Of a stretch of 64,000 nt of DNA, positions 1,995 to 17,901 are shown one piece after another; position 1 is the stretch's first letter, and each line of letters opens with the position of its first letter. Where the stretch lies: the NCBI GenBank assembly GCA_028691835.1, contig JAQUYN010000001.1:21122-85121 (forward strand), in the 5' to 3' direction. Below the pieces are notes generated by a model. That model was given only the letters and a program-made list of their open reading frames with translations. It was not told where the DNA came from and searched no databases. This DNA comes from Alphaproteobacteria bacterium. Its GTDB lineage: Bacteria > Pseudomonadota > Alphaproteobacteria > UBA9219. Both the position numbers and the translations under genes were made by a program.

Positions 1995-1997
1995 TAA

Positions 1998-3008: not shown

Positions 3009-3135
3009 AACTTTCCCTTTCCTATCGGTGGTTCTGCGCGCTTTTCATCGCCACGTTGTCCCCCACCAGCGCAATAGCTGGCGAACGAAGCGGGTAAAAG
3101 GCCGAAGGAATGGGGACTGCGACAACATACTGCGC

Positions 3136-3336
3136 TCAGGCCGCTCTAGCTTCTTGATGGTTTGGACGTTCGTATTGCATGGCCAGATCGAATATGGCTA
3201 CGGCCTTGTTGGCTGCTATAAGTGCGTCCGCGTCGCGCCCCGCTCGAACCAAGGCATATGTCCGTAAAATAAATCTCTTGGATTGCCAAAGCAAAAGGCG
3301 TCCCCACAGGTTCAGGTTTTCGTCATACTTATCCAT
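3136..3336 (-). CDS. small hypothetical protein (66 aa)
   Basis: ORF downstream of the repressor gene, with the palindromic operator 3361..3375 just upstream of its start. No recognisable motif. Confidence 0.35.
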   Translation of the reverse strand: MDKYDENLNLWGRLLLWQSKRFILRTYALVRAGRDADALIAANKAVAIFDLAMQYERPNHQEARAA

Positions 3337-3360
3337 ATCATGCCCCTCAAATCGAAAATG

Positions 3361-3375
3361 TTACCAATTCGGTAA
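3361..3375. promoter_or_regulatory. 15-bp palindromic operator candidate TTACC-N5-GGTAA (copy 1: TTACCAATTCGGTAA)
   Basis: Perfect inverted repeat read directly. The same half-sites and spacing recur at 4060..4074 and 7948..7962, all in prophage intergenic regions. Confidence 0.5.
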
Positions 3376-3427
3376 GAAATGGCAAATTTGGGGGCGTAGA
3401 GTCAAGAAATGAATCGACTGGCGGGGG

Positions 3428-3874
3428 TTATTTTGCGCGGCGCTTATTAAACTTAACAACATGGGCAGCAAGGTTCACCGTCTCTCGATGGTTCATATGG
3501 CCATCAAGCACCTCGCGGTAAACATAGTTTGACCAATCGACAAGCTCTTGGCGGGAAACGTCCACGTCGAGCTTCTCTGCGGTTTCAAATATTGCGCCTA
3601 AAATCGTTCCCATAAGCGCATCATCGGCCTTCTTGCCCCCGAATTTCTTGCTAACCGGAAGATCCACGATTTCATCGGCTGTAGCGTCCAGAGCGCCACA
3701 AATCCTTAGCAGCCATTCGATGGTCAGCTTGCGGACGCTTTTCTCAAGCCTGTTAACTTGGGCAGTGGACGTGCCTAGCTTTAACGCCAAGGCTTCTTGC
3801 GTCATCCCACGCGATTCACGAACAGCTTTGATGTTGTTCGTTACCGTTTCCTGTTTTTGCTTTATCGCCTTCAT
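3428..3874 (-). CDS. cI/XRE-like prophage repressor (148 aa)
   Basis: IKAVRESRGMTQEALALKLGTSTAQVNRLEKSVRKLTIEWLLRICGALD is an HTH_3 motif. The gene is divergent from the replication operon across a 246-bp operator-rich intergenic region. Confidence 0.8.
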   Translation of the reverse strand: MKAIKQKQETVTNNIKAVRESRGMTQEALALKLGTSTAQVNRLEKSVRKLTIEWLLRICGALDATADEIVDLPVSKKFGGKKADDALMGTILGAIFETAEKLDVDVSRQELVDWSNYVYREVLDGHMNHRETVNLAAHVVKFNKRRAK

Positions 3875-4059
3875 AATTCGCCTTTATCGCCTGTTTGTGC
3901 ATCGCACAGTTACCTTATAGCACATTTACCGAAAACTGTTTACCATTTAGGAAATACCGCCTGTTAATAATTTATCTCATTACCATACTGTATTACGCCC
4001 TTTTTAGCAGGAAAATAACGAAAGTAAAAGCAAAAAAGAAGAATCCCGCTTGAATCATT

Positions 4060-4074
4060 TTACCGAAATGGTAA
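4060..4074. promoter_or_regulatory. 15-bp palindromic operator candidate TTACC-N5-GGTAA (copy 2: TTACCGAAATGGTAA)
   Basis: Perfect inverted repeat about 85 nt upstream of the Toprim gene start. A one-mismatch copy (TTACCATTTAGGAAA) lies at 3940..3954, and further TTACC half-sites lie at 3910, 3927 and 3980. Confidence 0.5.
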
Positions 4075-4159
4075 TGTAGCCTCACGCAAGGCGGTTTTTC
4101 CTTATTTCAAAAAAAGCCCCTTGGCGCGCTTACAACTTACATCATCGGGAGAAAAGATC

Positions 4160-4984
4160 ATGGCGGATCAAGGGGATCGTGCGTCTTTTGGCGTGGTTAC
4201 ACCATCGGATAAAGGACAAAAAGCAGAAAACAACGGGCTGGGCAACGAAACGGGGGGCACAAAGGGGCGAACACAAGCCCTGTCCCTTGAAAAGGGGCGC
4301 ATGACCGTCCGCGCTTTTATCCGCAAGGCGCAGATTGCCGCATCCGATCATGTGCAGAGGAAGCAAAAGGTTGACTGGTCACAGCGCATTTTTAACGAGA
4401 GCTGGGCGATCACAGACACGGACGGGGAACGCTATCTCTTTTCACGCGGGATCGAATTTGCGGAACAGCCGCCGCCTGAAGCCTTGCGCTTTCATTCCTC
4501 CGTTCTACACGAACCGACGCACAAACATTATCCTGCGTTGATCGCGGCGGTGACCAATGCCGATGGCTGCCTTGTCGGCATTCACCGCACCTATTTGCAG
4601 CCGGGCGGGAAAAGCAAAGCTGACATCCCCTTCGGCGGAACCAAGCGGATGCTGGGCGACTGCTACGGCTCCTTCGTTCGACTTTCTACAAACGTCGAAA
4701 AGAAACTAGTCATTACCGAAAGTATCGAGACAGCCCTGACCATCATGCAGGCCTGTCCTGAATATCCCGTCTGGGCAGCCATGTCACTTGGTAACATGAA
4801 GGCTCCCGTGCCATCGCACGTTCAGGAAATTATCCTTTGCGCCGATGGCGACAATCGTGACCCGAACGCAGCCGAACGCCTCCTCATGGATGCCGTGCGC
4901 CTTCAGCAGGAGGCCAACCATCGCGTGTTGATCGCGCGACCACCGCAAGGGTTGGACTTCAACGATTTGCTGTTGACGGAGTGA
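4160..4984 (+). CDS. Toprim-domain protein (primase-like, DUF7146/Toprim type)
   Basis: C-terminal LVITESIETALTI...ILCADGDNRDPNAAERL...PPQGLDFNDLLL gives the Toprim E and DxD signatures. Start moved to ATG 4160, which has GGGAGA 8 nt upstream; the ORF track starts at TTG 4121. Confidence 0.7.
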   Translation: MADQGDRASFGVVTPSDKGQKAENNGLGNETGGTKGRTQALSLEKGRMTVRAFIRKAQIAASDHVQRKQKVDWSQRIFNESWAITDTDGERYLFSRGIEFAEQPPPEALRFHSSVLHEPTHKHYPALIAAVTNADGCLVGIHRTYLQPGGKSKADIPFGGTKRMLGDCYGSFVRLSTNVEKKLVITESIETALTIMQACPEYPVWAAMSLGNMKAPVPSHVQEIILCADGDNRDPNAAERLLMDAVRLQQEANHRVLIARPPQGLDFNDLLLTE

Positions 4985-4991
4985 TGGTCAT

Positions 4992-5963
4992 TTGCGCGTC
5001 CTCGACCTTTTCTCCGGCATCGGCGGCTTTTCTCTCGGACTTGAAGCAGCAGGAATGCGAACCGTCGCTTTTTGCGAAATCGAGCCTTATTGCCGTGCCG
5101 TCTTGCGAAGGCACTGGCCGAACGTGCCGATCCACAAGGACGTGCGCGCGCTCGACGGCGGGCAATACAGGGGCACAGTCGAGCTTATTTGCGGGGGATA
5201 CCCATGCCAGCCCTTCAGCATGGCAGGACGCAGGCGTGGCACAGAAGATGAAAGACATCTCTGGCCGCAAATGTATCGCCTTGTTCGAGAGATCAAACCG
5301 CGATGGGTCGTTGCCGAGAATGTTGCTGGCCATATTAGCCTCGGCTTCGATGAGGTTACCACATCGCTGGAAGCTGAAGGCTTCACCGTCTGGCCGTTTG
5401 TACTTCCAGCTTGCGCCGTTGGCGCCCCGCACAGACGGGATCGAGTCTGGATTGTGGCTCACGCCAACCACAACAGCCATTGCACAACGCAGCCAAGCAG
5501 CCATGAGCAAGCGGCAGGCTTGGAGGAATGCGTCGGGGCGCAAGACCGTGCCACCGGGGAACCTTGCCGAGCAATTGACGGTATCCGGCGTGATGCCGTG
5601 TGCGGACATGATGAAGCCCTCTCTGCTGCCGACACCACGCGCAGGCAAGCAATCGGGCAAGAGCGGCGAGGGTTTTTCAAAGACACTGCTGGAAGCCCTG
5701 CTGCCGACGCCATCGACGAGCGATGCGAAGGGATCTTCGGCGAAGAGGTTTCGGGGCAGTCCAGAATCTCACGGAAACTTGCGCGAGGTCTTAAGAGATG
5801 GACCGACGGATGGCCAGTATCCGCACCCCGCCTTTGTCGAGTGGATGATGGGATACCCCATCGGACACAGCGTTTGCGCGCCCTCGGCAATGCCATCGTC
5901 CCGCAAATCCCGTTCCTTATCGGGCAAGCCATCCTGCAATACGAGCGGGAGGCAAGGTCATGA
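4992..5963 (+). CDS. DNA (cytosine-5)-methyltransferase
   Basis: Motif I DLFSGIGGF, motif IV GGYPCQPFS, motif VI ENV, motif VIII HRRDRVWIV, motif X RLRALGNAIVPQ. TTG start. Confidence 0.85.
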   Translation: MRVLDLFSGIGGFSLGLEAAGMRTVAFCEIEPYCRAVLRRHWPNVPIHKDVRALDGGQYRGTVELICGGYPCQPFSMAGRRRGTEDERHLWPQMYRLVREIKPRWVVAENVAGHISLGFDEVTTSLEAEGFTVWPFVLPACAVGAPHRRDRVWIVAHANHNSHCTTQPSSHEQAAGLEECVGAQDRATGEPCRAIDGIRRDAVCGHDEALSAADTTRRQAIGQERRGFFKDTAGSPAADAIDERCEGIFGEEVSGQSRISRKLARGLKRWTDGWPVSAPRLCRVDDGIPHRTQRLRALGNAIVPQIPFLIGQAILQYEREARS

Positions 5964-6181
5964 CGTATGAAACGCTTTTCTCGCGCTGTACGTTTCTTGA
6001 TTGCGACAGAGTCGTCCCGAACAGGGTAGCCCCCATCGAGCATGTTACGCTGGGTGAAGCTATCGACTTACGCCACAGGGACGCATGTGGCCAAGGACGC
6101 ATCAGCGAGGAAAGTTTTCAGAAGATCCGCGACTTTCGCGCCAAGATGGCGGAATACGACAAACAATGGGGTCGGAAATGA
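5960..6181 (+). CDS. hypothetical protein (73 aa)
   Basis: ATGA start/stop overlaps with both neighbours (5960/5963 and 6178/6181) suggest translational coupling within the replication operon. Confidence 0.45.
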   Translation: MTYETLFSRCTFLDCDRVVPNRVAPIEHVTLGEAIDLRHRDACGQGRISEESFQKIRDFRAKMAEYDKQWGRK

Positions 6182-7188
6182 ACAACCCGAACCCTTGGAG
6201 CAAATTTTTCTGGAATGACTGGGAGAATGACCCAGCCCTACGCTTGTGCTCATTGGCAGCACAAGGCCTCTGGATGCGGCTTCTCTGCATCGCGGCAAAA
6301 TCCAGCCCGACTGGCTTCGTAATCGTAGCAGGACGACCTTGTTCCTCGACGGACATCGCTCTTTTGACCGGTGTGGCCGAACAGGAAGTCGAAACGCTTA
6401 TCGGTGAGCTTTCTCGGAACGGCGTTTTTTCCCGCGACACACTGGGCCGCATGTATTGCAGGCGCATGATCCGCGACAACAAGAAACGAAACAAACTGCG
6501 CCAAAACGGCGCGAAAGGAGGACAAGCCAGCTTCTTGAATGGTAAGGGCGTTTTCGCACCGACCGAGCAAAAAGCCGAGCAAGCAACCGAGCAAGCCACC
6601 CAGCCCCAGAAGCCAGAGTCCAGAGTCCATAAGCCAGAAAGAATAACCCCCGAAGGCCCCCCTGTGGTTTTGGCACAATCGAAACCGAAAGCGGTTGTCC
6701 ATGCGCTGGCTTCCGATTGGTCTTTGCCGGAGGAATGGAAGGTCACGTCCCTTGAACGCAATTGGGGATCTGCGGCTATCGACAAACAAGCCGTAAAGTT
6801 CAAGCAGTATTTTGGTTTTGGCAAAGGCAGCGACATCAAGCGCAGCGAAAAAGGCTGGCGTCAGACATGGCTCAATTGGCTTGATCGAGCGTTGAAGATC
6901 GATCCTGATGCGGCAACCTTTGGGAAGGCGGATAGTCCGGCAGTTCCTACGAGCTATCCGCCCTTGCCGGAAGCCGTGCGCCAAAAACTGAAAGGGCATT
7001 TTGCCTTCAACGAAAGTTTCATTCAGCGGTGGCTTGCGCCGTGCGTCTTTGATCTTGACGCTGGCACCATTGCCGCGCCGTCGCGCTTTCAAGCCGACTA
7101 TCTCGAAACACATTACGGGTCGAGCCTGCGCCATGCTTTGGGCGATGGGCTGCAAATCCTCGTTTCCAAGAAAATAGGAGTGCTATGA
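6178..7188 (+). CDS. DUF1376 (YdaU-like) phage replication-associated protein
   Basis: N-terminus MNNPNPWSKFFWNDWENDPALRLCSLAAQGLWMRLLC fits the DUF1376 pattern W..F...DW..D..L..LS....G.Y..LL. Start set at ATG 6178, which overlaps the upstream stop. Confidence 0.65.
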   Translation: MNNPNPWSKFFWNDWENDPALRLCSLAAQGLWMRLLCIAAKSSPTGFVIVAGRPCSSTDIALLTGVAEQEVETLIGELSRNGVFSRDTLGRMYCRRMIRDNKKRNKLRQNGAKGGQASFLNGKGVFAPTEQKAEQATEQATQPQKPESRVHKPERITPEGPPVVLAQSKPKAVVHALASDWSLPEEWKVTSLERNWGSAAIDKQAVKFKQYFGFGKGSDIKRSEKGWRQTWLNWLDRALKIDPDAATFGKADSPAVPTSYPPLPEAVRQKLKGHFAFNESFIQRWLAPCVFDLDAGTIAAPSRFQADYLETHYGSSLRHALGDGLQILVSKKIGVL

Positions 7189-7415
7189 TCCTGTATCCAT
7201 CACTGACGGGCGACGGACGGGCGTATGCGCTCGGCATACAAAACCAATCCTATTTGGATATATTCCGACTGGCTGTTTCCATATCGGCAACAAAAGCCGG
7301 AATTTCTTCAGGAAAATCAGTCATAAATAACGGAATATCAACCATACCGTGCCATACTGATCGAAACTGGCAGGAGATGCTGTGCCGCCGGAATGCGGAG
7401 GCGCAGCATGGCTAA
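7185..7415 (+). CDS. hypothetical protein (76 aa), doubtful
   Basis: ATGA overlap with the upstream stop. No motif. The region contains the hairpin GTATGCGCTCGGCATAC and could instead be regulatory. Confidence 0.3.
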   Translation: MILYPSLTGDGRAYALGIQNQSYLDIFRLAVSISATKAGISSGKSVINNGISTIPCHTDRNWQEMLCRRNAEAQHG

Positions 7416-7893
7416 ACGGCGACGCAAAAAAGTGCCACTTCCTGCCCGCCAAGGAGAACGGGCAACGATGGAAAGACGCCTACAATTGGGTGGCGTGGTA
7501 GCGGAAGTTATTGATCGCGATTTACGTGGGAACCCCTTTATGAAGCGTGATCGAGCGCGGTGTGAATGTGTGCTCGATGATTATCTCTATCGCCTTCTTC
7601 TCACCTTGTCCGAACACGAAGCAGGTATGAAGTTCCGCTGCGCCTATCTGCGCGGCGTTTGCCGTGTCATGGTAGACGATCCCAGCGGGGGTGGCGAGTA
7701 TGATCCAGAAATGGCCATGCTTATCGTGCCTATCAGCGAAGAGATTTTGCGCGAGGCGTACAAGGTTTTGACCAAAGCGCAGAAAGAAATCATGATCCGC
7801 GTTTGCGGGCACGGTGAATGGGCGGGCGGCACCGATAAACTTGAAACGCTTCGTCGCGCATTGGAACGTTTGGTCACGCTTTGGAAGCTCTGA
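7408..7893 (+). CDS. hypothetical phage protein; possible HTH/sigma-region-4-like regulator
   Basis: GGAGG lies 6 nt before ATG 7408. The basic N-terminus is KRRRKK. C-terminal LTKAQKEIMIRVCGHGEW only loosely resembles a LuxR/sigma-r4 HTH. Confidence 0.5.
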   Translation: MAKRRRKKVPLPARQGERATMERRLQLGGVVAEVIDRDLRGNPFMKRDRARCECVLDDYLYRLLLTLSEHEAGMKFRCAYLRGVCRVMVDDPSGGGEYDPEMAMLIVPISEEILREAYKVLTKAQKEIMIRVCGHGEWAGGTDKLETLRRALERLVTLWKL

Positions 7894-7947
7894 GAAATTA
7901 TTTTTCAGATCATTGCATTTTCCCTATTGACGATCCCATGTTTTCTG

Positions 7948-7962
7948 TTACCGTTTCGGTAA
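7948..7962. promoter_or_regulatory. 15-bp palindromic operator candidate TTACC-N5-GGTAA (copy 3: TTACCGTTTCGGTAA)
   Basis: Perfect inverted repeat in the 330-bp gap between the replication operon and the ParB/terminase operon. Confidence 0.5.
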
Positions 7963-8145
7963 GGTCGGGAGACGTGGGAAAGGAAGCCGCAGAAAGATTT
8001 TCTGGGGCTTTTTTGATGGCCTTTTCCTCCCGCCGCGCACTGCCTCTCTAGGCTGCAACCTCTTGACAATCAAGGTACTTCCAGCCCGAAAACCTATGCG
8101 GGCGGGCGTAGCGCGGAACGTTTCTAGCGACAGAATCAAAAAAGG

Positions 8146-8194
8146 GTGGACACTTTCCCAAGAGTGGACAGGTGGACACTGTCCTTTTGTCCAC
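8146..8194. repeat. cluster of four GTGGACA heptamers (3 direct, 1 inverted)
   Basis: GTGGACA at 8146, 8164 and 8172; TGTCCAC at 8188..8194; internal palindrome GGACACTGTCC at 8174..8184. The cluster lies 30 nt upstream of the ParB-like gene start. Confidence 0.6.
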
Positions 8195-8224
8195 TTGCGA
8201 GGACAGCGCGGAGGTTTGCGATTT

Positions 8225-8851
8225 ATGGACACAAAACTTCCACGCATGGCCGAGCGTATTGAGTTTTGGCCTACATCAAAACTTCAGCCTTATGAAAAGA
8301 ACCCACGCCTTCACAGCGACGAACAAATTAGCCAGATCGCCGCGAGTTTCATTCGCTTCGGCATGGTGATGCCAATCCTCGTCGATAGCGAGGCGGGCGT
8401 GATCGCTGGGCATGGGCGGTTGGAAGCGGCAAAACTCGTTGGCCTCAAGAAAGTTCCCGTTGTCGTTCTCGATGGACTAACCGAGGAAGAAAAAAGCGCC
8501 TACGTCATCGCCGACAACAAGCTGGCCGAAAACGCGAGCTGGGATAAGGAACTTCTGGGCGAACACGTCGAAGTCCTGTTAGCCAAGGATTTTGATATGG
8601 GCGTTATCGGCTTTTCTAAAGACGAAATTGAGCGGCTTTTGCACGAAGCCCAAGACGATTTGAGCGACGGGTTTGACGGCAAAGATGCCGACGAACATCA
8701 AGAAGAGTCCGACACGCAATGCGTCGTTGGTTCCTACCGTCTCCCCGTTTCACGCGATGATTATCTGCGTTGGCACGATTCCATTCGCGACGCCGTTGGC
8801 TTTGAAAAAGACGCGATTAAGAAAGAAATCAGGAGGCGGTTGAAATTATGA
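8225..8851 (+). CDS. ParB-like nuclease/Srx-fold domain protein
   Basis: LQPYEKNPRLHSDEQISQIAASFIRFGMVMPILVDSEAGVIAGHGRLEAAKLVGLKKVPVVVL is a ParBc pattern. Start set at ATG 8225, since the ORF-track start at 8063 would read through the repeat cluster. Confidence 0.75.
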   Translation: MDTKLPRMAERIEFWPTSKLQPYEKNPRLHSDEQISQIAASFIRFGMVMPILVDSEAGVIAGHGRLEAAKLVGLKKVPVVVLDGLTEEEKSAYVIADNKLAENASWDKELLGEHVEVLLAKDFDMGVIGFSKDEIERLLHEAQDDLSDGFDGKDADEHQEESDTQCVVGSYRLPVSRDDYLRWHDSIRDAVGFEKDAIKKEIRRRLKL

Positions 8852-10350
8852 TCGAGCTTGTTCCGATTAACGACGTGCGCCCCAGCACATATAACCCCCG
8901 CAAGTCCGATCCCATTCGCCTCAAGATTATCGAATTATCTCTTCGCAAGCTGGGCTGGCTTCTCCCCATTTACGCCGACAAGGATGGAGAGATTCTTTCC
9001 GGCCATCAACGCCATCTTGTTGCGACGCGCATGGGCATGACGGAAGTGCCCGTTTGCTACATTCCGCGCATGACGCTGGAAGAGCGTAAAGCCATCAACG
9101 TCGCGTTCAATCGCGGCACGAACGATATGCAGAACTCGGACGCGCCCGACACGCTGAAACAGGCGCTTGAACAATGTAACGTCTTTGACATTGCCGCCGA
9201 GCTTCCCGATCAAACGGATGTCTGCCCTTGTTTGAATGTTGAAACAGTTCCTCTCGCGCCGCTCTTGAAAGCCAACAAAGGGCGGTGGGTTCCTTACGCC
9301 CGCAACCTCGCGCAAATGCTTCGCAAGCGAGGCATTCAAATGCCAATCATTGCCACCCGCGATCACAAAATCATCAACGGGATTGGGCGGCTGGAACTGG
9401 CAGCGGATCGTGGAGAAACCCACGTCTCGGTAGTCTGGATCACAGACACACAAGCCGAGCTGGCACAAGCTATGTTGAACTTTCTTAGCATGGATTTTGA
9501 TATTCATACCCGTTACGCCGACTTGCTGCGCTATAACTCCTTCCGGCGCGTCCGGCGGGTGCGCTCCGAGCTGGGTTGGGGTTTCATTTTTGCCCATTAC
9601 AAGAAAACCGCCGTCAAGGAATATGACGTTACCGACCCTAAGAACGCAGCACACTGGAAACAACTTTACGGCACCTCGGTGGTAGATTTCGGCGCGGGGC
9701 ATCTGACCGAAACACAAATATTGCGATCCATCGGGGTTCGCGTCTCTCCATTCGAGCCTTTTCGGATCGGCGACACGGATGAAATCGACAAGGCCGAAAG
9801 CCTGCGTGTTGCGCGCGCCTTTCTGGCCGACGTTGCGGCGGGCGTGAAATATGACTCCGTCTTCATTTCATCGGTCTTGAACAGCGTCCCCTTCAAAGAG
9901 GATCGGGAACATATCGCCTGCCTGTGCGCCGCGTTGTGTGGCCCCAAAACGCGGCTTTATGCGGCGGCCTCCTCGCGGGGTCATTCCAACTGGCGCAATG
10001 TCGCCGGAGGCAATCAAATATCCGAGCGTCGCCTGAAAGAATGTATCTTCCGGCTGGAATATGAGGGCGGTATCACGCTGGGGGATTTTCAGGCCAAGCC
10101 AAAGGTTCAGAAGTACCATTCACAGAAAGAGTTTTACGATCTATTCAGCCCGTTCTTTGCGCGGGTGCAAGTCGAAGACAAAGCCAACAACGTCACGGCG
10201 ATTTGCGGTAGCCCGCTGCCCGTTGACGCGAAGAAATTAAAAGCAGCTATCGCTTTTGAGTTTGATTTACCGTATCCTGATGGCAGTCGCATGGGGTTGG
10301 TGGACGAAGCCGTCGCCGCCTATGAAAAGCGGCTAGGTATTACGTTATGA
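8848..10350 (+). CDS. fusion protein: two ParB/Srx-like domains plus a C-terminal class I SAM-methyltransferase-like domain
   Basis: Domain 1 has YNPRK...ILSGHQRHLVATRMGMTEVPV. Domain 2 has MPIIATRDHKIINGIGRLELAADRGETHVSVVW. The C-terminus has VVDFGAGH (motif I) and DSVFISSVLNSVP. I saw no [DNS]PP[YFW] motif. Confidence 0.65.
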   Translation: MIELVPINDVRPSTYNPRKSDPIRLKIIELSLRKLGWLLPIYADKDGEILSGHQRHLVATRMGMTEVPVCYIPRMTLEERKAINVAFNRGTNDMQNSDAPDTLKQALEQCNVFDIAAELPDQTDVCPCLNVETVPLAPLLKANKGRWVPYARNLAQMLRKRGIQMPIIATRDHKIINGIGRLELAADRGETHVSVVWITDTQAELAQAMLNFLSMDFDIHTRYADLLRYNSFRRVRRVRSELGWGFIFAHYKKTAVKEYDVTDPKNAAHWKQLYGTSVVDFGAGHLTETQILRSIGVRVSPFEPFRIGDTDEIDKAESLRVARAFLADVAAGVKYDSVFISSVLNSVPFKEDREHIACLCAALCGPKTRLYAAASSRGHSNWRNVAGGNQISERRLKECIFRLEYEGGITLGDFQAKPKVQKYHSQKEFYDLFSPFFARVQVEDKANNVTAICGSPLPVDAKKLKAAIAFEFDLPYPDGSRMGLVDEAVAAYEKRLGITL

Positions 10351-10766
10351 TCATTTTGTTGGACTTGAATTTTACGCTGGTTTCAAACAGTCACGAAAAA
10401 CTGAAACCCTTTGCTCGTCAGATAGAAAACGAAACCTACTGCTTCGACCTTCTCAGCCGGATCAAACACGCCACGGTCATATTGATTACGGCGCGCCCCG
10501 CCATGCACAGTACGGCGACGCTCAAAAGCATAAAAGCAAAGACGGGTTGGAAGCCAGACGCGGCTTACTTCAACGAATGGTTCTTTTCGCCGCCTGCCTG
10601 CAAAAAGAAGATTCTTGAAACCTACATCTTCCCGAAGTTTGGCGCGAACCCCGACACCTACGTTGCCATTGAAAGCAACCCCTCGACCCGCGCTATGTAT
10701 GAAAAGCTCGGCATCGTTGCCCTGACAAGAGACACGGTTCTCGAAACCTTCCGTCCCAAAGACTAA
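10347..10766 (+). CDS. HAD-superfamily-like small protein (motif I variant DLNFT)
   Basis: MIILLDLNFTLV resembles the DxDxT motif with Asn at the second acidic position. VILITARP is motif II-like. ATGA overlap with the upstream gene. Weak call. Confidence 0.4.
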   Translation: MIILLDLNFTLVSNSHEKLKPFARQIENETYCFDLLSRIKHATVILITARPAMHSTATLKSIKAKTGWKPDAAYFNEWFFSPPACKKKILETYIFPKFGANPDTYVAIESNPSTRAMYEKLGIVALTRDTVLETFRPKD

Positions 10767-10805
10767 TCCCCCCAAACAACTTAAAATGTGAAAGGAGGCT
10801 CTGCC

Positions 10806-11471
10806 ATGCAGATCCCGAAAGAATGGACGTTTGCCAATAAGGATGTTGCCGAAGGCTTTGATCATCATGTCCGCGAGCAATTGCCGTGGTACGATCTTCT
10901 GACCTCCGCCGTTTCATATATCGGGCGGCATTACATCCCGCAGGGCGGTCTTGTCTATGACATCGGCGCATCCACGGGCAACATTGGCCGTGCCTTGCAA
11001 TCGACCCTCGACTCTCGCGGGGCCGAGCTTGTCGCCATTGAAGAAAGTGCCGAAATGGCCGCGCTCTATGATGGCCCCGGATCGCTGGCTATCACGAACG
11101 CCTTGTCGTTCCCGTATCAGCCTTTTGATCTAGCCATTTGCTTTTTGGTCCTCATGTTCTTCCCGCCAAGCCAACGCGAACGGTTCCTTGACAGGCTGAA
11201 GGAAAACCTCCGCCCCGGTGGCGCGATCCTCGTGGTCGATAAATGTGAGGCTGTGCAGGGCTACCCCGCAACCATCCTCTCTCGCATTGCTCTGGCTCAT
11301 AAGATCGCGGCGGGCGTAAAGCCGGAGGAGATTATCGCTAAGGAATTGAGCCTGAGCGGCGTTCAAAGACCCATCGATCCAACCATCTTGGGCGACGAGG
11401 CCATTCCGTTTTTCCGCTTTGGCGAGTTCGCCGGATGGATCATCGACTACAACAGCCTTCATAGAACCTGA
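10806..11471 (+). CDS. CmoA-like class I SAM-dependent methyltransferase (carboxy-SAM synthase-like)
   Basis: EWTFANKDVAEGFDHHVREQLPWYDLL...GGLVYDIGASTGN...LVAIEESAEM...LRPGGAILVVDK parallels, from memory, E. coli CmoA [26 protein letters not shown]...VYDLGCSLG...[10 protein letters not shown]...[20 protein letters not shown] lies 7 nt before ATG 10806. Confidence 0.6.
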   Translation: MQIPKEWTFANKDVAEGFDHHVREQLPWYDLLTSAVSYIGRHYIPQGGLVYDIGASTGNIGRALQSTLDSRGAELVAIEESAEMAALYDGPGSLAITNALSFPYQPFDLAICFLVLMFFPPSQRERFLDRLKENLRPGGAILVVDKCEAVQGYPATILSRIALAHKIAAGVKPEEIIAKELSLSGVQRPIDPTILGDEAIPFFRFGEFAGWIIDYNSLHRT

Positions 11472-11479
11472 AATGAACG

Positions 11480-12010
11480 ATGGGACTTTCAATCCGAGCC
11501 TATGCCGCGCATCGGGGATGCTCGAAAAGTGCCGTGATGAAAGCCGTCTCGCGGGGGCGTATCTCCCGCGACCCCGACGGCAAGATTGATCCCATTCAAG
11601 CCGACCGCGAATGGGAACAAAACAGTGATCCGGGGCAAGTGGAAGCGCAAGGCGCGGAAAAACCCGCCCTACAGACGAAACTTAAAGCGAAAGCGGAAAG
11701 CTCTTCAGAAACCCCATCCAACGAAGGCCCGACCTATATCCAAAGCCGCGCAATCCGCGAGCTGTACGTCGCGCGGCTGCGTAAGATGGAATATGAGGAA
11801 AAAGCGAACCGCCTCGTTCCCCTCGATAAGGTAACGGTACGTTGGTTCAACCTCGCACGGCAATTACGCGACCAGCTTTTGTCTCTTCCTAACCGCATCG
11901 ACGCCATCCTTGCCGCCGAAAGTGACCGTTTCAAGGTCAATCAGCTTTTGACCGAGGAGATCACGCGCGTGCTCGAAGAGTTCTCTAAATCTGACCCCGC
12001 GAATCTCTGA
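11480..12010 (+). CDS. phage terminase small subunit (Nu1/Terminase_5-like, N-terminal HTH)
   Basis: MGLSIRAYAAHRGCSKSAVMKAVSRGRIS pattern. The gene sits immediately upstream of, and overlaps, the GpA-type large subunit gene. Confidence 0.75.
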   Translation: MGLSIRAYAAHRGCSKSAVMKAVSRGRISRDPDGKIDPIQADREWEQNSDPGQVEAQGAEKPALQTKLKAKAESSSETPSNEGPTYIQSRAIRELYVARLRKMEYEEKANRLVPLDKVTVRWFNLARQLRDQLLSLPNRIDAILAAESDRFKVNQLLTEEITRVLEEFSKSDPANL

Positions 12011-13926
12011 TGAATAGCGCGCAGGAAGTTGCCTACATCCTTTCCTATCTGGAAGGGCTGAAACCCGATCCCGTGCAAACGGTATCGACATGGGCGGATG
12101 AGAACCGCTTTCTCTCCGGCAAGGCGGCCTCCGAGCCGGGGCCGTGGCGCACAAGCCGAACGCCTTATATGCGCGAAATTATGGACTGCCTTTCGGCCTG
12201 TTCTCCGGTAGAGCGGGTCGTTTTTATGAAGGGCGCGCAGGTCGGCGGGACAGAATGCGGCAATAACTGGCTGGGTTATATCATCCATCATACGCCGGGG
12301 CCGACGCTTTCTGTTCAACCGACCGTAGAAATGGCCAAGCGCAATTCCAAACAGCGCATTGATCCGCTTTTGGAAGAAAGTCCAGAACTTCGCAAACTTA
12401 TCAAGCCCGCAAGGTCCAAGGATTCCGGCAACACGATTTTGGTCAAAGAGTTTCCGGGCGGCATCTTGGTGATGACGGGCGCGAACAGCGCGGCGGGGCT
12501 TCGCTCCATGCCCGTGCGGTTTCTGTTTTTGGATGAAGTTGATGCGTTCCCCGGCGACGTGGAAGATGAAGGCGATCCCGTAGCTCTGGCCGAGGCGCGC
12601 ACCCGCACTTTTGCGCGGCGCAAGATTTACATTGTCTCGACGCCGACGGTGAAAGGCCTGTCACGGATTGAACGTGAATACGAAGCCAGCGATATGCGCC
12701 GCTTTATGGTGCCGTGTCCTTTGTGTGGGGCGTTTCAGTGGCTCAAATTCTCGCAACTCAAATGGCCTCACAACGAACCCGATAAAGCGGCTTATGAATG
12801 CGAACATTGCGGCCAGCTTTTTGCCGAGCATCACAAAACAGAAATGCTCGCGCATGGTTATTGGGAAGCCCACGCGGAAGGCGATGGGCGCACGGCAGGA
12901 TTTCACATCTCAAGCCTCTATTCGCCGCTCGGCTGGCGAAGTTGGGCAGAGATCGCGCGCGCATGGCTCGACGCGCAAGGTTCGGATGCGTCCATCAAAT
13001 CGTTCAAGAACACCGAGCTTGGCGAGACCTACGTTGAAAGCGGTGAAGCCCCAGAATGGCATCGCCTCTATGACCGCCGTGAAGATTATCGCATTGCTAC
13101 CGTGCCGATGGGGGGCTTGTTCCTCACGGCTGGTGCGGACGTTCAGAAAGACCGCCTTGAACTGGAAATCGTGGCATGGGGCCGCGACCGCGAATGCTGG
13201 TCGGTGGATTACCGTGTCTTGCAGGGAGATCCTGCCAAGGCCGATGTGTGGATCGCGCTGGATGCGGTTCTGGCCGAAAGTTTCACACATGAAAACGGGG
13301 TCAATCTCGCGATCCTGAAGTTGGCCATCGACACGGGCTATGCAACGCAGGAAGTTTACGACTGGGTACGCCGTCAGCAAGGGGATAGGGTACTAGCGAT
13401 CAAGGGCGTTGACCGCCTTGGTGCGCCCTTGGGCGCGCCCAGCCATATGGATGTGACGGTTGAAGGGAAACGCAAGCGCCGTGGGCTTCTGGTGTGGCCC
13501 GTGGGATCGTCTTTTACCAAGTCCGAGCTTTATGGATGCCTTCGCAAGGACGCGCCGACGGACGAGCAAAAGGCGCAAGGCATTCGCTATCCGGCAGGCT
13601 ATTGCCACTTCCCGAAATACGGCGAGGATTATTTTAAGCAACTGACGGCGGAACGGCTCGTCACCAGCAAAAACAAGCGGGGCTTCCCCTTCCGCGAATG
13701 GCGCAAAGAACGTGACCGCAACGAAGCGTTGGACTGTCGCGTGTACGCGCGCGCCGCCGCCGCAAGCGTCGGTATCGACCGCTTCAATGAAACTGTTTGG
13801 CTCCGTCTTGAAACCGCTCTCGGCATTGTCACTGAAGTCACCAACCCCGCGCCCGAAGTCAACACAGCGCAGTCCAAGTCAACATCCGCCCCGCAACGCC
13901 GAACAATAAGGAGCAGTTATCTATGA
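12010..13926 (+). CDS. phage terminase large subunit, lambda GpA family
   Basis: 638 aa. WADENRFLS...PGPWRTSRTPYMREIMD...FMKGAQVGGTE (Walker A-like), LFLDEVDAF (Walker B) and the zinc-like CPLCG..CEHCG are typical of Terminase_GpA. Confidence 0.85.
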   Translation: MNSAQEVAYILSYLEGLKPDPVQTVSTWADENRFLSGKAASEPGPWRTSRTPYMREIMDCLSACSPVERVVFMKGAQVGGTECGNNWLGYIIHHTPGPTLSVQPTVEMAKRNSKQRIDPLLEESPELRKLIKPARSKDSGNTILVKEFPGGILVMTGANSAAGLRSMPVRFLFLDEVDAFPGDVEDEGDPVALAEARTRTFARRKIYIVSTPTVKGLSRIEREYEASDMRRFMVPCPLCGAFQWLKFSQLKWPHNEPDKAAYECEHCGQLFAEHHKTEMLAHGYWEAHAEGDGRTAGFHISSLYSPLGWRSWAEIARAWLDAQGSDASIKSFKNTELGETYVESGEAPEWHRLYDRREDYRIATVPMGGLFLTAGADVQKDRLELEIVAWGRDRECWSVDYRVLQGDPAKADVWIALDAVLAESFTHENGVNLAILKLAIDTGYATQEVYDWVRRQQGDRVLAIKGVDRLGAPLGAPSHMDVTVEGKRKRRGLLVWPVGSSFTKSELYGCLRKDAPTDEQKAQGIRYPAGYCHFPKYGEDYFKQLTAERLVTSKNKRGFPFREWRKERDRNEALDCRVYARAAAASVGIDRFNETVWLRLETALGIVTEVTNPAPEVNTAQSKSTSAPQRRTIRSSYL

Positions 13927-14108
13927 CGCTCCCTGATCTTGATAAATATCGGAAAATGGCAGAGGGTTTTGACTTGTCTGATGAGCAAAAGGACGAACTT
14001 ATCATGACTGTGTGGAATATTATGGGGCAATTTGTTGATCAAGCCTTTGGTGTCCATCCAGTACAATTGTGCCAAAAGAATCGTGAAAGCAAGCATTTGA
14101 CCCAATGA
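13923..14108 (+). CDS. hypothetical protein (61 aa) coupled to terL
   Basis: ATGA overlap with the terL stop; AT-rich. No similarity to lambda gpW that I can see. Confidence 0.4.
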   Translation: MTLPDLDKYRKMAEGFDLSDEQKDELIMTVWNIMGQFVDQAFGVHPVQLCQKNRESKHLTQ

Positions 14109-14166
14109 TTTTATGGCTGTTTGTGTTATCATGGTGCGGGCAACGAAACAGATAAAAGTGAGAAAA

Positions 14167-14517
14167 ATGCCTATTCAGTGCGTAATTTATTGCCGTACAG
14201 CTTGTGTCCCACAAGAAGGGCTAGACATAGAGGCGCAAAAACAAGAACAATTTTGCCGCGACTATGCGGCGGCATACGGGAACGAGGTTGTCGAAGTTTT
14301 TTGCGACTCTGGCGTGTCAGGTCTTTCAGAAAACAGATCGGGCTTTAATGCAATGCTGGATTTTCTGGGCCAACAACAAAAACCGTTTGCCGTCTTGATT
14401 GCTTCGCGGGATAGGCTCGCGCGTGATCTTGATTTGCTTCTGGCGTTGGAGAAAAAGCTCTCCGATTTATGTGCTCCCCTTGTTTCCGTGAATGAGGTGC
14501 ATCAAAAGGTCGCATGA
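14167..14517 (+). CDS. resolvase-domain-only protein lacking the canonical nucleophile serine
   Basis: CVIYCRTACVPQEGLDIEAQ aligns with the downstream integrase's VTYCRVSSAKQVKEGHGLSSQ, so R-V-S-S is replaced by R-T-A-C. The SRDRLARDLD arginine motif is retained. ATGA overlap with the integrase start. Confidence 0.6.
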   Translation: MPIQCVIYCRTACVPQEGLDIEAQKQEQFCRDYAAAYGNEVVEVFCDSGVSGLSENRSGFNAMLDFLGQQQKPFAVLIASRDRLARDLDLLLALEKKLSDLCAPLVSVNEVHQKVA

Positions 14518-16082
14518 TTAAATTTGCTGTCACTTATTGCCGCGTTTCCAGTGCCAAACAGGTCAAAGAAGGCCACGGCCTAAGTTCGCAAGAAACGCGA
14601 TGCCGCGAATATGCTAGGCACAAGGGCTATGAGGTCATCGAAACGTTTTTCGATGAAGGCATTTCAGGAAGCCTTATCGAACGCCCCGGCATGCAGTCCA
14701 TGTTGGGGTTCCTGCGCAAGAGAAAAGGCGAAATTATAGCCGTCATTATCGACGACATCAGCCGTCTTGCGCGTGGACTTGAAGCGCATCTGGATTTACG
14801 AACTTCAATCGGTGCCGCTGGCGGCAAACTGGAATCCCCATCTATCGAGTTTGGTGAAGATTCCGACAGCATCCTAGTTGAGAACCTTCTGGCCAGTGTT
14901 TCGCAACACCAACGGCAAAAGAACGCCGAGCAGGTCAAAAACCGCATGCGGGCGCGCGTGATGAACGGGTACTGGACAGGAAAAGCTCCGTATGGTTATC
15001 GCTACAAGTCCATGCCTAACCACGGCAAGCTGTTGGTTCGTGACGAACCTTTGGCTTCAATCGTACAGGAGGCTTTGGAGGGCTATGCTTGTGGGCGTTT
15101 TGAAACACGACCGGAGATAAAATACTTTCTGGAAAGCCACGCCGTCTTTCCCAGAGGATATAATGGGCGAGTTCATTATCAGCGCGTTGACGACATGCTC
15201 AACAATGCCCTGTACGCAGGATATGTTCATTTTCCACGATGGGATGTTCATTTCCAACCGGGAAAACACGAAGCCATAATCAGCCTTGAAACGTGGCAAA
15301 AGGTTCAAGATCGCTTGAAGGGTCAGGCCAAGGCACCAGCCCGCGTGGATGTACATGACGATTTTCCTCTGCGCGGATTTGTGGTCTGCGCTTGCTGCGG
15401 ACAGCCTATGACCGCTTGCTGGTCGCGAGGGAGGAAGAAGGCTTATCCCTATTACCTTTGCCAAACGAAGGGGTGTTCCGAATACAAAAAATCTGTCCGC
15501 AAGGAGAAATTGGAAACAGAGTTCGAAATCCTTCTGAAAAGCCTGTGCCCGTCCGAAGACATGTTCAAAATAGCTGTTGAGGCGCTCAAGGATCATTGGC
15601 GCGAGGGGGAAAAGAACTTGGGGCAGGAATCCATGCTTGCGAAAAAGGAGCTAGCGGAAGTTGAAAAGAAGGTTGGGCAACTCATGGATCGGATTGTCTC
15701 GACGGACTCGCCCAGCGTGATCAAGGCCTATGAAGAGCACATCAAAAATCTTGAGATGAGGAAGGCGGGACTAGCCGAGATTGCGAAGAATTGCGGCAGG
15801 CCGTTAAAGCCGTTCGATCAAACTTATCGAACCGCCCTTGAATTCCTCCGAAACCCGCAGAAACTCTGGGTTTCCGAGCGTATCGAGGATAAGAGAATTG
15901 TGCTGAAATTGGTTTTTGCGAAGCCTTTGGAATACTGCCAAAACGGCGGTTATCGAACCGCCCTAACTTCTTGTCCCTTCACACTTTTTCGGGGCTTTAG
16001 TACCCCTAATAAAGTTTTGGTGGAGCCAAGGGGGATCGAACCCCTGACCTCAACAATGCCATTGTTGCGCTCTCCCAGCTGA
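14514..16082 (+). CDS. large serine recombinase (phage integrase type)
   Basis: YCRVSSAKQ nucleophile motif, DDISRLARG, a recombinase domain, the zinc ribbon CACCGQPMTACW...YYLCQTKGC and a coiled-coil. The last ~22 codons (VEPRGIEPLTSTMPLLRSPS) are the antisense of tRNA-Ala. Confidence 0.85.
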   Translation: MIKFAVTYCRVSSAKQVKEGHGLSSQETRCREYARHKGYEVIETFFDEGISGSLIERPGMQSMLGFLRKRKGEIIAVIIDDISRLARGLEAHLDLRTSIGAAGGKLESPSIEFGEDSDSILVENLLASVSQHQRQKNAEQVKNRMRARVMNGYWTGKAPYGYRYKSMPNHGKLLVRDEPLASIVQEALEGYACGRFETRPEIKYFLESHAVFPRGYNGRVHYQRVDDMLNNALYAGYVHFPRWDVHFQPGKHEAIISLETWQKVQDRLKGQAKAPARVDVHDDFPLRGFVVCACCGQPMTACWSRGRKKAYPYYLCQTKGCSEYKKSVRKEKLETEFEILLKSLCPSEDMFKIAVEALKDHWREGEKNLGQESMLAKKELAEVEKKVGQLMDRIVSTDSPSVIKAYEEHIKNLEMRKAGLAEIAKNCGRPLKPFDQTYRTALEFLRNPQKLWVSERIEDKRIVLKLVFAKPLEYCQNGGYRTALTSCPFTLFRGFSTPNKVLVEPRGIEPLTSTMPLLRSPS

Positions 16083-16093
16083 GCTATGGCCCC
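16018..16093 (-). tRNA. tRNA-Ala (anticodon GGC)
   Basis: Reverse complement is GGGGCCATAGCTCAGCTGGGAGAGCGCAACAATGGCATTGTTGAGGTCAGGGGTTCGATCCCCCTTGGCTCCACCA. It folds as a cloverleaf by hand, with a G3:U70 pair, anticodon loop AU-GGC-AU and encoded CCA. Confidence 0.9.
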
Positions 16094-16189
16094 ACACGTC
16101 GAGGAAGCGTCAAAATACAGGGATGGGCGTGAAATACAAGCTTAAAATGAGCCCCTCCCCCACCTTATTCACACTTTTCTGCTAACGCC

Positions 16190-16798
16190 TTATGCCGAGG
16201 TATCGACCTTATGCGTTGTAGGCCCACCCTTGGCGACAACAACCATGGCTTCGCGCAACAGGCGGTCATGAATCATATAGCCCGGCTGAAGAACTTGCAC
16301 GATCATGCCCGCAGGCTTAGACGGATCCTCGGCTTCCATCATCACCTGATGATAATGGGGATCGAACGGTTGCCCCATCGGATTAAGCTTTTTAACGCCG
16401 AACTTTTCAAAAGTGGAAAGCAGTTGACGCTCTGTCGCCTCAACCCCCAGGATCAAATTCTTCAGCGTATCGCCATCGGCCCCACCTTCAGGCACAGCCT
16501 CAAGAGCACGGCGGAAATTATCGGCAACATTCAACATTTCTTTGGCGAATCCGCCGACGGCATATTTTTGCGCATCATCAATTTCTTTTTTCATACGGCG
16601 ACGGGTATTTTCCGTTTCCGCCATAGCCCGCAAAATTTGATCTTTAAGCTTCTCAATTTCTCTTTGAGCAGATTCAAGAGCATCTTCAGTCGCTTCTACA
16701 GATGTTTCAGCCTCTTGATCGGCATCATCTTGTACTGAGGAAACGTTTTGTGTTTCGTCTGCAACAAAAGGCTCTTGATTTATCTTCGTATCGCTCAT
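16190..16798 (-). CDS. grpE: nucleotide exchange factor GrpE
   Basis: KDQILRAMAETENTRRRMKKEIDDAQKYAVGGFAKEMLNVADNFRRAL...PFDPHYHQVM are GrpE hallmarks. Start set at ATG 16798 (MSDTK). Confidence 0.9.
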   Translation of the reverse strand: MSDTKINQEPFVADETQNVSSVQDDADQEAETSVEATEDALESAQREIEKLKDQILRAMAETENTRRRMKKEIDDAQKYAVGGFAKEMLNVADNFRRALEAVPEGGADGDTLKNLILGVEATERQLLSTFEKFGVKKLNPMGQPFDPHYHQVMMEAEDPSKPAGMIVQVLQPGYMIHDRLLREAMVVVAKGGPTTHKVDTSA

Positions 16799-16851
16799 AA
16801 TTTTTGTTTCCTGTTTCTTAACCGAGAGAGGGCATACTTCGTCCGCTATCA

Positions 16852-17901
16852 TTGCCCTATATGGGGGCGTTTGCCAACAAATTCAAGCAGCAAAACATGA
16901 CAAAACCTCAGACCTCTCCTATTCAGATTATTGGCATTCTTTCTGGTCGCGAAATCATCGGCGATGCCCTGATTAAAATCCCATTCTTACGCGCCTTACG
17001 AACCACATGGCCAGATGCCCAGATTCATTGGGTCACCACCAAGGGATCAACAGCTTATAGCGGGCCCTTGCGCGAAACGATCAAGCCCCTTATCAACGAA
17101 GTCCATGAAGTGCCTGATTGGCTTCATTCTTCTTCATCCGCTGCGCCCGATTTCGATTTACTGATTGATACGCGTGGGCGGTGGAAAATGGCCCTTGCCG
17201 CACGAATGAGTTTGCCCCACAAACTGTTCATCGCCCCCGCCGCTCGTTATCTGTTTTCAGACCGCAGGCCTTCCCTTTTTTCAAAGCGTCCCAGCAGGTT
17301 AATCCAACGTCTTCTACAAACGGTTGAGCTTGCCTCTGGCTTTGCGCCCCCCGTTACGGGACGCCTTCCGGCTCCGGCCGACTTTATGGCCAAGGCCCGA
17401 CACATCCTTCCTGAAGGCCAGATCTATGTTGGCTTCGCTCCCGGCGCGGGCAACCCCATCAAAAAATGGCCGCTCGATCATTTTATCAAAGTCGCCCAGC
17501 TTCAAGCCCGCATGAACCGCTTCCCTGTTTTCATTTTGGGGCCGGATGAAATGGGAATTTATGACGAACTGTTCCGGGCAGTGCCAGAAGCCATCTTCCC
17601 GCTGCAAGCCCATGAAGCTTGGGGCGACGATAAGATCTGCCTTGAAAAAACTTTAGCCTTGGGACACTGCCTTGACATCGCCGTCACAAACGACAGCGGC
17701 ACCAGCCACATGCTGGCTGCCGTAGATTGCCCCCTTGTCAGCCTGTTTGGCCCCACCTCCGCATCGAAACTTGCCCCCAGCGTTAGCCTCGGAGCTGTTC
17801 TGCGAGCGCAAGACTATGGCAGCAATGACATGATCGCCATACCACCCGAGGCGGTGCATGAGGCGGTCAACAAGGTCCTGCTTCTGCAAAAACGCATGTA
17901 A
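16852..17901 (+). CDS. glycosyltransferase family 9 (heptosyltransferase-like)
   Basis: IGDALIKIPFLRALR..WPDAQIHWV, GFAPGAGNPIKKWP, VTNDSGTSHMLAAVDCPLVSLFGPTS. The start is uncertain (TTG 16852, ATG 16861 or ATG 16897). Confidence 0.75.
   Translation: MPYMGAFANKFKQQNMTKPQTSPIQIIGILSGREIIGDALIKIPFLRALRTTWPDAQIHWVTTKGSTAYSGPLRETIKPLINEVHEVPDWLHSSSSAAPDFDLLIDTRGRWKMALAARMSLPHKLFIAPAARYLFSDRRPSLFSKRPSRLIQRLLQTVELASGFAPPVTGRLPAPADFMAKARHILPEGQIYVGFAPGAGNPIKKWPLDHFIKVAQLQARMNRFPVFILGPDEMGIYDELFRAVPEAIFPLQAHEAWGDDKICLEKTLALGHCLDIAVTNDSGTSHMLAAVDCPLVSLFGPTSASKLAPSVSLGAVLRAQDYGSNDMIAIPPEAVHEAVNKVLLLQKRM

Follow-up and report, generated by a model that had tools for sequence, protein, structure and literature searches.

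Natural carboxymethylation of DNA was shown only in December 2025, and for one class of enzyme, CmoX, which acts on cytosine C5. In the Synechococcus phage S-B43 system reported in Nat Commun (PMC12783734), a phage CmoA produces carboxy-S-adenosylmethionine (Cx-SAM); CmoX takes only Cx-SAM to form 5-carboxymethylcytosine, for which E. coli CmoA also supplied the donor. CmoY, an asparagine-synthetase-like amide ligase, adds glycine to 5-carboxymethylcytosine. CmoX is a homolog of C5-methylases with an SPPC motif and with Arg350 replacing the motif-X Asn, and this Arg binds the Cx-SAM carboxylate. ParB-domain proteins are frequent, not obligatory, neighbours in CmoX systems, and a preliminary search in the same study gave no adenine-N6 or cytosine-N4 carboxymethyltransferase candidates linked to CmoA (PMC12783734). 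Here we describe a gene set in a 64,000-nucleotide stretch of DNA from an alphaproteobacterium of GTDB lineage UBA9219 (assembly GCA_028691835.1, contig JAQUYN010000001.1, positions 21,122 to 85,121), the whole of which is called the window below. In a phage late operon of this window, genes for a stand-alone ParB-like protein, a 500-residue fusion of two ParB-fold domains with a methyltransferase domain, a protein of haloacid dehalogenase (HAD) fold and a CmoA-like protein precede the terminase genes. Our preferred reading is that this module makes Cx-SAM and carboxymethylates phage DNA through the fusion, and we put the probability of the full chain at about 0.5.

The initial annotation of this DNA had stated that no system of such composition was described. 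For phage CmoA with CmoX, with or without CmoY and often with ParB, this no longer stands (PMC12783734), while the replacement of CmoX by the fusion and the HAD-fold protein is indeed undescribed. Literature searches on ParB-methyltransferase fusions and on recent CmoA work returned nothing on a pairing of the fusion with CmoA.

The CmoA-like gene (10806–11471, + strand) encodes 221 amino acids. The top NCBIfam family of its product is TIGR00740 (CmoA; E 1.3e-14, 54.5 bits, model positions 11–203 of 239), with the next family at E 1.4e-8, and the protein belongs to phrog_4752 ('tRNA methyltransferase', E 8e-48). By sequence, the PDB entries nearest to it are 4gek (E. coli CmoA) and 1im8 (H. 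influenzae YecO). A 15-sequence family profile matched these two structures at 1.2e-18 and 9e-16, and the next group, the cystargolide/belactosin O-methyltransferases of CysG/BelI type (PMC11408123), at 1.8e-9. With TIGR00740 on top and CmoA/YecO the closest structures by nine orders of magnitude, the earlier assignment of the protein as CmoA-like, and not as a generic methyltransferase, is upheld. Judged from sequence relationships, the protein probably makes Cx-SAM.

The fusion (MT500; 8848–10350, + strand) begins with a ParB-fold domain (8848–9183), which scores 21.1 bits against PF02195, below the cut-off, and matches phrog_620 at 3.8e-27 and ParB/Noc in Foldseek. A second ParB-fold domain (about 9211–9513) came to light solely through a profile match inside the protein: residues 28–94 of the family align profile-to-profile with residues 154–217 (hhalign probability 94.9%, E 4e-8), hence this fold occurs twice. 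As the box II Gly-x-x-Arg motif, domain 1 has SGHQRH and domain 2 has NGIGRL. The remainder of the protein is a divergent class-I methyltransferase domain of the S-adenosylmethionine (SAM) type (about 9610–10347), seen by Foldseek and by motif I. The AlphaFold2 model of the fusion has a predicted local distance difference test score (pLDDT) of 84.7, and its top Foldseek matches are ParB/Noc N-terminal domains; model, fold search and internal duplication together confirm the ParB-ParB-methyltransferase architecture proposed earlier. The family keeps DFGAGH (motif I) and E303 (the acid of motif II) invariant, as it does several basic residues of the methyltransferase domain, namely R353, K419, K422 and H424. 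The family is phrog_5475 (unknown function, E 3e-113). We found 868 homologs of about 500 residues with about 55% identity across phyla, and their names, if any, are almost always 'ParB N-terminal domain-containing protein' or 'hypothetical protein'. The stand-alone ParB-like protein upstream (8225–8851, + strand; 208 residues counted from the ATG, with a GGAGG ribosome-binding site upstream) matches PF02195 ParB_N at 33.4 bits (cut-off 26.3) and phrog_620 at E 1.5e-53.

The fusion and CmoA are tightly associated in phage genomes. The same genes stand in the same order on three IMG/VR contigs with 83–97% protein identity, and on dozens more with about 55%, and therefore the gene set is not due to chance. 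With the CmoA-like gene and the fusion as seeds, we collected 113 distinct contigs from IMG/VR. In the 77 distinct fusion loci among them, a CmoA homolog came after the fusion in 75, the stand-alone ParB upstream of the fusion in 67, the HAD-fold gene in 67 and a gpA-type terL in 63, with terS; no further recurrent partner was seen among these 77 loci. The stand-alone ParB occurs in CmoX-type loci too, and the HAD-fold gene in none of them. A second, independent scan, this time of species-representative genomes, yielded 80 fusion loci, of which 71 had enough downstream sequence, and a CmoA homolog followed the fusion in 68 of these 71. Their hosts were Alphaproteobacteria, Vibrio/Photobacterium (Vibrionaceae), Verrucomicrobiota, Leptolyngbyaceae (Cyanobacteria), Chloroflexi, Phycisphaerae and Rhodothermia. 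Taken together, about 150 loci of at least six phyla and three groups of cultured phages show a CmoA homolog almost invariably after the fusion. Two loci hold unusual forms of the CmoA gene. L140 (1956–3302) has a divergent CmoA-like match (53 bits) whose open frame either overlaps the HAD gene or comes after it, possibly a gene fusion or a frame artefact, and L168 (6898–7251) has only a 118-residue CmoA-like fragment, possibly of a pseudogene.

The CmoA clade of the window also occurs away from the fusion. There a C5-methylase gene adjoins it in 31 distinct loci, and all of these enzymes carry GSPPC and a motif-X Gly-Arg, the counterparts in S-B43 CmoX being SPPC at 95–98 and R350 within ERVGRMVPP. 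Moraxella phage Mcat8, for example, has the order ParB, CmoX-like, CmoA-like, terS, terL. By comparison, the C5-methylases inside fusion loci are all canonical, and the fusion and a CmoX-signature enzyme were never found in one locus. Since the window CmoA clade pairs with the fusion or with CmoX and never with both, the two are alternatives. The closest case is a CmoA gene common to two metagenomic phage contigs (L061:1579–2216 and L064:2531–3168), with 95.5% nucleotide and 99% protein identity and with homology ending at the gene borders. One contig (L061) has ParB-CmoX-CmoA and the other (L064) ParB-fusion-HAD-CmoA-terL, and their flanks are otherwise unrelated. The pair is an apparent exchange of transferase cassettes around a fixed donor-synthase gene, as read from sequence comparison. 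Because the same donor-synthase gene pairs with CmoX in sister phages, the fusion fills the 'transferase' slot. A Cx-SAM consumer beside CmoA was thus found for the clade, with 31 CmoX-signature loci and one 99% identical protein, and not in the window itself. No CmoX-, CmoY- or CmoB-like sequence was detected within the 64 kb (CmoY with SpCmoY as tblastn query), and CmoY was in no fusion locus. The new part is the candidate transferase: a widespread and uncharacterised double-ParB methyltransferase fusion that is genetically locked to CmoA and interchangeable with CmoX. The carboxymethyl-type modification first suggested for this operon is strengthened by these comparisons, including the co-occurrence, the CmoX loci, the apparent swap and the canonical CmoA partners described below.

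Our analysis covers gene content, folds, family relationships and co-occurrence, and every chemical step we infer. As homology and context suggest, the 221-residue enzyme would convert SAM and prephenate to Cx-SAM. The fusion would bind Cx-SAM in its divergent Rossmann methyltransferase domain and carboxymethylate the phage genome, with its two ParB-fold domains holding it on DNA. The stand-alone ParB-fold protein is probably a loader or activator, by analogy with the ParB neighbours of CmoX and with ParB176, which the phage thymine dioxygenase 5mYOX176 needs for action on double-stranded DNA (PMC13229309). The HAD-fold protein, possibly a phosphatase, would assist the fusion; CmoX systems lack it, and it would be dispensable in some lineages. 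The position at the head of the late operon would fit modification of replicated DNA before or during packaging. A more specific claim, which we hold tentatively and rate somewhat short of an even chance, is that the phrog_5475 fusion, with no relation to C5-methylases or CmoB, represents a second family of natural nucleic-acid transferases that depend on carboxy-SAM, and that it installs an undescribed carboxymethylated base in phage DNA. The group could be placed on an exocyclic amine or at another position, and the base could perhaps be processed further with the HAD-fold partner.

The module is also present in cultured phages. In Gordonia phage Evaa, gp1 is ParB-like, gp2 is the fusion (49% identical), gp4 is a phrog_32036 protein annotated as 'phosphatase' and encoded on the opposite strand, gp5 belongs to phrog_4752 and gp6 is a terminase of phrog_38. 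Pseudomonas phage SM1 and its PaMx31-like relatives have a ParB (gp051), a phrog_5475 protein (gp052, E 2e-184), a phrog_4752 protein annotated as 'tRNA methyltransferase' (gp053) and a terminase large subunit of phrog_9 (gp055), and Aeromonas phage HJ05 has gp1–gp5 in the same order. With Evaa, SM1 and HJ05 as carriers, the pairing persists across the terminase families phrog_15, phrog_38 and phrog_9 and in an actinophage. In the Evaa locus (L158, 1–7228), gp3 (phrog_4273, unknown function) and gp4 are inverted and separate the fusion from the CmoA-like gene; gp3 does not belong to the module in other loci. Literature searches found no DNA-modification report for Evaa, SM1/PaMx31 or HJ05.

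Several observations weigh against our reading, and they are given here together with the alternatives on which they bear. Many of the loci are from related phages with conserved synteny, so the locus counts are not independent events. Moreover, four loci (L094, L174, L199 and L200) have the fusion and the HAD-fold gene without a detectable CmoA homolog before the terminase; in these phages host CmoA may supply Cx-SAM, or the fusion may not be strictly Cx-SAM-dependent. These four loci, and the gpA-type terminase shared by most surveyed loci, which perhaps represent one phage lineage, would fit a view in which adjacency is only synteny. CmoA would then act alone, for example draining host SAM or prephenate, or feeding host tRNA modification, and the fusion would be an independent SAM enzyme in a 'moron' slot before the terminase. 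SAM depletion has been raised as a possible role of phage CmoA (PMC12783734). However, the fusion is paired with CmoA homologs of at least four clades and in phages of three terminase families, the pairing is kept in the actinophage despite the inverted genes, and of the loci collected with just the CmoA gene as seed nearly all contain the fusion or CmoX. We regard simple synteny as very unlikely.

The CmoA assignment itself is weakened at two points. The 221-residue protein is under the NCBIfam cut-offs, with 54.5 against 193.3 bits for TIGR00740 and 39.8 against 285 for NF011995. R199, which in E. coli CmoA is the sole residue contacting the Cx-SAM carboxylate, via a salt bridge (PMC4482062), aligns to an invariant Glu in the window CmoA clade ('AKELSLxGV'), with K198 kept. 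By contrast, the cofactor contacts of E. coli CmoA, namely Y39, D62, G64, S66, D89, D117, F137 and E164 (PMC3663124), are kept or conservatively replaced in the window protein (Y, D, G, S, E, N/D, F and D), and the change of E164 to Asp, which is shared by the window clade, is the one substitution reported to occur in the CmoA family (PMC3663124). Conservation of the CmoA residues, which the initial annotation had left for checking, is therefore found at the cofactor site and not at R199. In our alignment of loci L003–L240, residues 164 and 199 covary, the canonical type having Glu164 with Arg199 and the window type Asp164 with Glu199. The window type thus combines a charge reversal at the carboxylate position with an invariant 'VQRP' Arg (R188) nine residues on.

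The low scores and the reversed charge would suit a reading in which the 221-residue protein is a plain SAM methyltransferase of CmoA-like fold and the fusion a ParB-tethered SAM-dependent DNA methyltransferase, with no Cx-SAM involved. Pfam gives only generic Methyltransf_11/12/25 domains for this protein, and the next structural relatives of CysG/BelI type (PMC11408123; E about 1e-9) are carboxyl O-methyltransferases. Against this stands SpCmoA, an experimentally validated phage Cx-SAM synthase, which is likewise under the TIGR00740 cut-off (115.6 against 193.3 bits) and also has Glu at the R199 column ('DKEKEL'); thus this Glu weakens the CmoA assignment without overturning it. Window CmoA and SpCmoA are just 25% identical. 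In addition, CmoX-signature enzymes have CmoA partners of the same clade, at up to 99% protein identity. The at least four CmoA clades paired with the fusion point in the same direction. The window type (Glu199/Asp164) forms 65 pairs, the SM1/HJ05 and Evaa types make up other clades, and in 58 other pairs, with about a third of the partner homologs, the partner is a canonical CmoA with Arg199 and Glu164 ('RKR[LM]SLEGV'). The canonical partners are 34–35% identical to E. coli CmoA (E 1e-44) and thereby closer to it than SpCmoA is (29%, 5e-33). Ordinary methylation is, in our estimate, distinctly unlikely as an account of this module.

The methyltransferase domain of the fusion is a further difficulty. 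Its Foldseek neighbours are the small-molecule methyltransferases XrdM, ToxA, CcbJ, SgvM and AzeJ (weak, E 3e-4 to 1e-3), and it resembles no DNA methyltransferase, with no match to PF00145, PF01555 or PF02384. The domain has no Pro-Cys as motif IV, and only a loose [DNS]xP[YF] occurs, as SVPF346 and DLPY473. We considered SVPF346 as motif IV of an amino-methyltransferase and left it as a weak lead, for it suits just as well the 'vlhhVPd' motif that small-molecule methyltransferases generically have after β4. A likeness to CmoB was also rejected: hhalign against E. coli CmoB aligned 15 columns, at motif I only, with a probability of 7.7%. The carboxylate site of CmoB is formed by Lys91, Tyr200 and Arg315. 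Some homologs of the fusion match PF13489, the Methyltransf_23 family (P0177 and SM1 gp052), and residues 241–500 and the second ParB-like region of the fusion gave no Pfam or NCBIfam match even at E <= 1. A PDB sequence search with the fusion profile returned ParB/Noc only, with no sequence relative of the methyltransferase domain, and a BFVD fold search with the model returned nearly all ParB-domain matches and no characterised full-length relative. A reading as a defence system was dropped, because all that PADLOC reported were ParB-N hits against a model of Type II methyltransferases.

Such a domain, with no evident DNA-methyltransferase catalytic motif and with folds of small-molecule enzymes nearest, raises the alternative that Cx-SAM is made and that the substrate of the fusion is not polymer DNA, and is instead a free nucleotide, RNA or a protein, the HAD-fold protein being a phosphatase of a nucleotide or phospho-intermediate. 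ParB folds bind CTP, ATP or GTP, and in a survey of ParB-CTPase folds those fused to SAM-dependent methyltransferases are described as binding ATP (PMC12704722). The HAD fold is also tightly tied to the fusion and absent from CmoX loci. On the other hand, the fusion replaces a DNA carboxymethyltransferase in otherwise similar cassettes, its stand-alone ParB-fold partner is common to the DNA-acting CmoX systems, and capless HAD proteins of this kind resemble phosphatases of nucleic-acid ends. We consider a substrate other than DNA unlikely, and continue to favour carboxymethylation of phage DNA.

The role of the HAD-fold partner (10347–10766, + strand; 139 residues, phrog_32036, E 4e-31) is not explained by our reading, and this too counts against it. 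Its AlphaFold2 model (pLDDT 96) is a capless HAD Rossmannoid fold, and Foldseek found the 3'-phosphatase domain of T4 Pnkp (2ia5, TMq 0.71), Pnkp1 (4xru, TMq 0.76), HisB-N and MDP-1. The HAD-like call, offered as a weak one in the initial annotation, is therefore correct at the level of fold. The protein gave no Pfam or NCBIfam match even at E <= 1, and the family profile against PDB sequences gave nothing meaningful and no sequence-level match to any solved HAD. Invariant in the family are D6, N8, T10, T48-A-R-P51, K86 and E109-S-N111, by which the nucleophile Asp, the motif II Thr (T48) and the motif III Lys (K86) are kept and motif IV is E109-S-N111. The general acid/base Asp is missing from motif I, which has the invariant D6-L-N8-x-T10 (DxNxT for DxDxT) and, in Evaa gp4, D-L-H-Y-T. 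The protein may therefore be no ordinary phosphatase.

The operon is compact. The genes, their order and their start/stop overlaps are as first described, and the peptide blocks quoted at that time were found as written in the translations. ATGA overlaps lie at 8848, 10347 and 13923. The gaps are 39 nucleotides on the 5' side of the CmoA-like gene and 8 nucleotides on the 5' side of terS. The CmoA-like protein, previously given as 222 residues, has to be corrected to 221, with its start at ATG 10806: the frame is open from GTG 10788 (10788–11471), a strong ribosome-binding site (AAAGGAGG) lies 7 nucleotides 5' of ATG 10806, the homologs begin MxIP..WTF, and public gene calls are 221 residues. 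The terminase small subunit gene terS (11480–12010, + strand) matches phrog_57 at E 1e-31. The large subunit gene terL (12010–13926, + strand), whose ATG overlaps the terS stop (TGATGA at 12008–12013), is of lambda gpA type (PF05876 GpA_ATPase, 344 bits; PF20454 GpA_nuclease, 326 bits; phrog_15). A 61-residue open reading frame follows (13923–14108, + strand); it is 90% identical in L003/L004 and has no family match in Pfam, NCBIfam or PHROGs. In complete E. coli genomes, megablast with 8000–14200 gave no match. The window sequence is matched by a metagenome-assembled contig (GCA_043956595.1, JBINOD010002877.1), and the relatives closest to the fusion come from metagenome-assembled genomes of Alphaproteobacteria, Rhodospirillaceae and Micavibrio.

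Tandem serine recombinases mark the right end of the integrated element: one of 134 residues with the resolvase domain only (14113–14517, + strand) and a large one of 522 residues (14514–16082, + strand), whose genes overlap. Across this pair (14113–16082) the Pfam families are PF00239, PF07508 and PF13408. Related IMG/VR contigs stop at this point, and grpE (16190–16852, − strand), rpsI and rplM follow in the window. Inside the element (window 1–16100), no portal, capsid or tail gene comes after terL. A related IMG/VR contig continues for another 39 kb upstream of the module, so head and tail genes may be located outside the window, at the far end of the prophage. The IMG/VR contig 3300004154_000015 (51.6 kb), which ends in the module, suggests that the element forms the right-hand portion of a prophage of roughly 50 kb with its structural genes upstream of the window. 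Alternatively, it may be small and satellite-like, an element that has a terminase of its own.

The same element also encodes a canonical C5-cytosine DNA methyltransferase (4992–5963, + strand; PF00145, 149 bits) with the motifs GGYPCQPFS, ENV and LGNAIVP. It was considered as the user of Cx-SAM and rejected, because motif X has Asn instead of Arg and there is no SPPC. With this enzyme upstream, two different DNA-modification activities are possible in the element. An alternative-frame open reading frame (4981–5970) fully overlaps the C5-methylase gene and has about 58% identity in L003/L005. Two replication genes of the element are a primase-like gene with DUF7146 and Toprim_3 (4121–4984, + strand) and a gene for 367 residues (6085–7188, + strand) whose product matches a replisome organizer (phrog_13246) weakly and is DnaA_N-like at its C-terminus, at 24.3 bits, just under the cut-off. 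Farther upstream are genes of a helix-turn-helix XRE-type protein (1326–1994, + strand) and of a 336-residue Methyltransf_33 protein (EgtD/histidine N-methyltransferase-like; 1998–3008, + strand), the latter with no PADLOC match. The G+C content of this stretch is 0.46–0.47, compared with 0.53–0.57 for the element.

The fusion family is found in hundreds of phages and prophages of at least six bacterial phyla, including the cultured Evaa, SM1/PaMx31 and HJ05, and its pairing with CmoA points to a second acceptor enzyme for Cx-SAM and possibly to a new modified base. If our reading is true, it would be relevant to how phages evade restriction and other defences, could offer a new enzymatic handle for DNA labelling, and would give a function to three PHROG families, 5475 and 32036 (both 'unknown function') and 4752 ('tRNA methyltransferase'). 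The idea is directly testable, since cultured phages with the module exist.

Compared with known systems, parts of the module have precedents. For the HAD-fold protein these are the T4 PNK 3'-phosphatase, Pnkp1, HisB-N and MDP-1, with which it shares the fold (TMq 0.71–0.76), the nucleophile Asp, the motif II Thr and the motif III Lys, whereas the +2 acid/base Asp of such capless phosphatases is Asn here, or His in Evaa gp4, and motif IV is E-S-N. For the 208-residue ParB-like protein a precedent is 5mYOX176/ParB176, in which a stand-alone phage ParB gene also adjoins the gene of a DNA-modifying enzyme; the enzyme there is an iron/2-oxoglutarate dioxygenase, however, and the window ParB is known from its sequence. 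The survey of ParB-CTPase folds lists Methyltransf_23 fusions as phage-enriched and uncharacterised and also covers ParB_N with N6_N4_Mtase (PMC12704722). Those fusions likewise have a ParB N-terminal domain before a methyltransferase domain and are enriched in prophages, but the window fusion has two ParB-fold domains and a methyltransferase domain undetected by Pfam, and its coupling to a CmoA gene was not found in the parts of the survey consulted.

The bacterial CmoA/CmoB pathway for cmo5U34 in tRNA has in common with the window a CmoA-family synthase, with a conserved N-terminal lid and SAM contacts, whose gene adjoins that of a class-I transferase. It differs in that the fusion matches CmoB at motif I only, that the window clade is without R199, and that the genes here stand in the late operon of a phage together with ParB domains, the window having no CmoB homolog. 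The S-B43 system of CmoA, CmoX and CmoY (PMC12783734) likewise has a phage CmoA clustered with a nucleic-acid-directed transferase and a frequent ParB neighbour. Unlike that system, the window is without CmoX and without a CmoY-like ligase, and its transferase slot is occupied by an unrelated fusion of two ParB-fold domains and a class-I methyltransferase domain, together with the HAD-fold partner.

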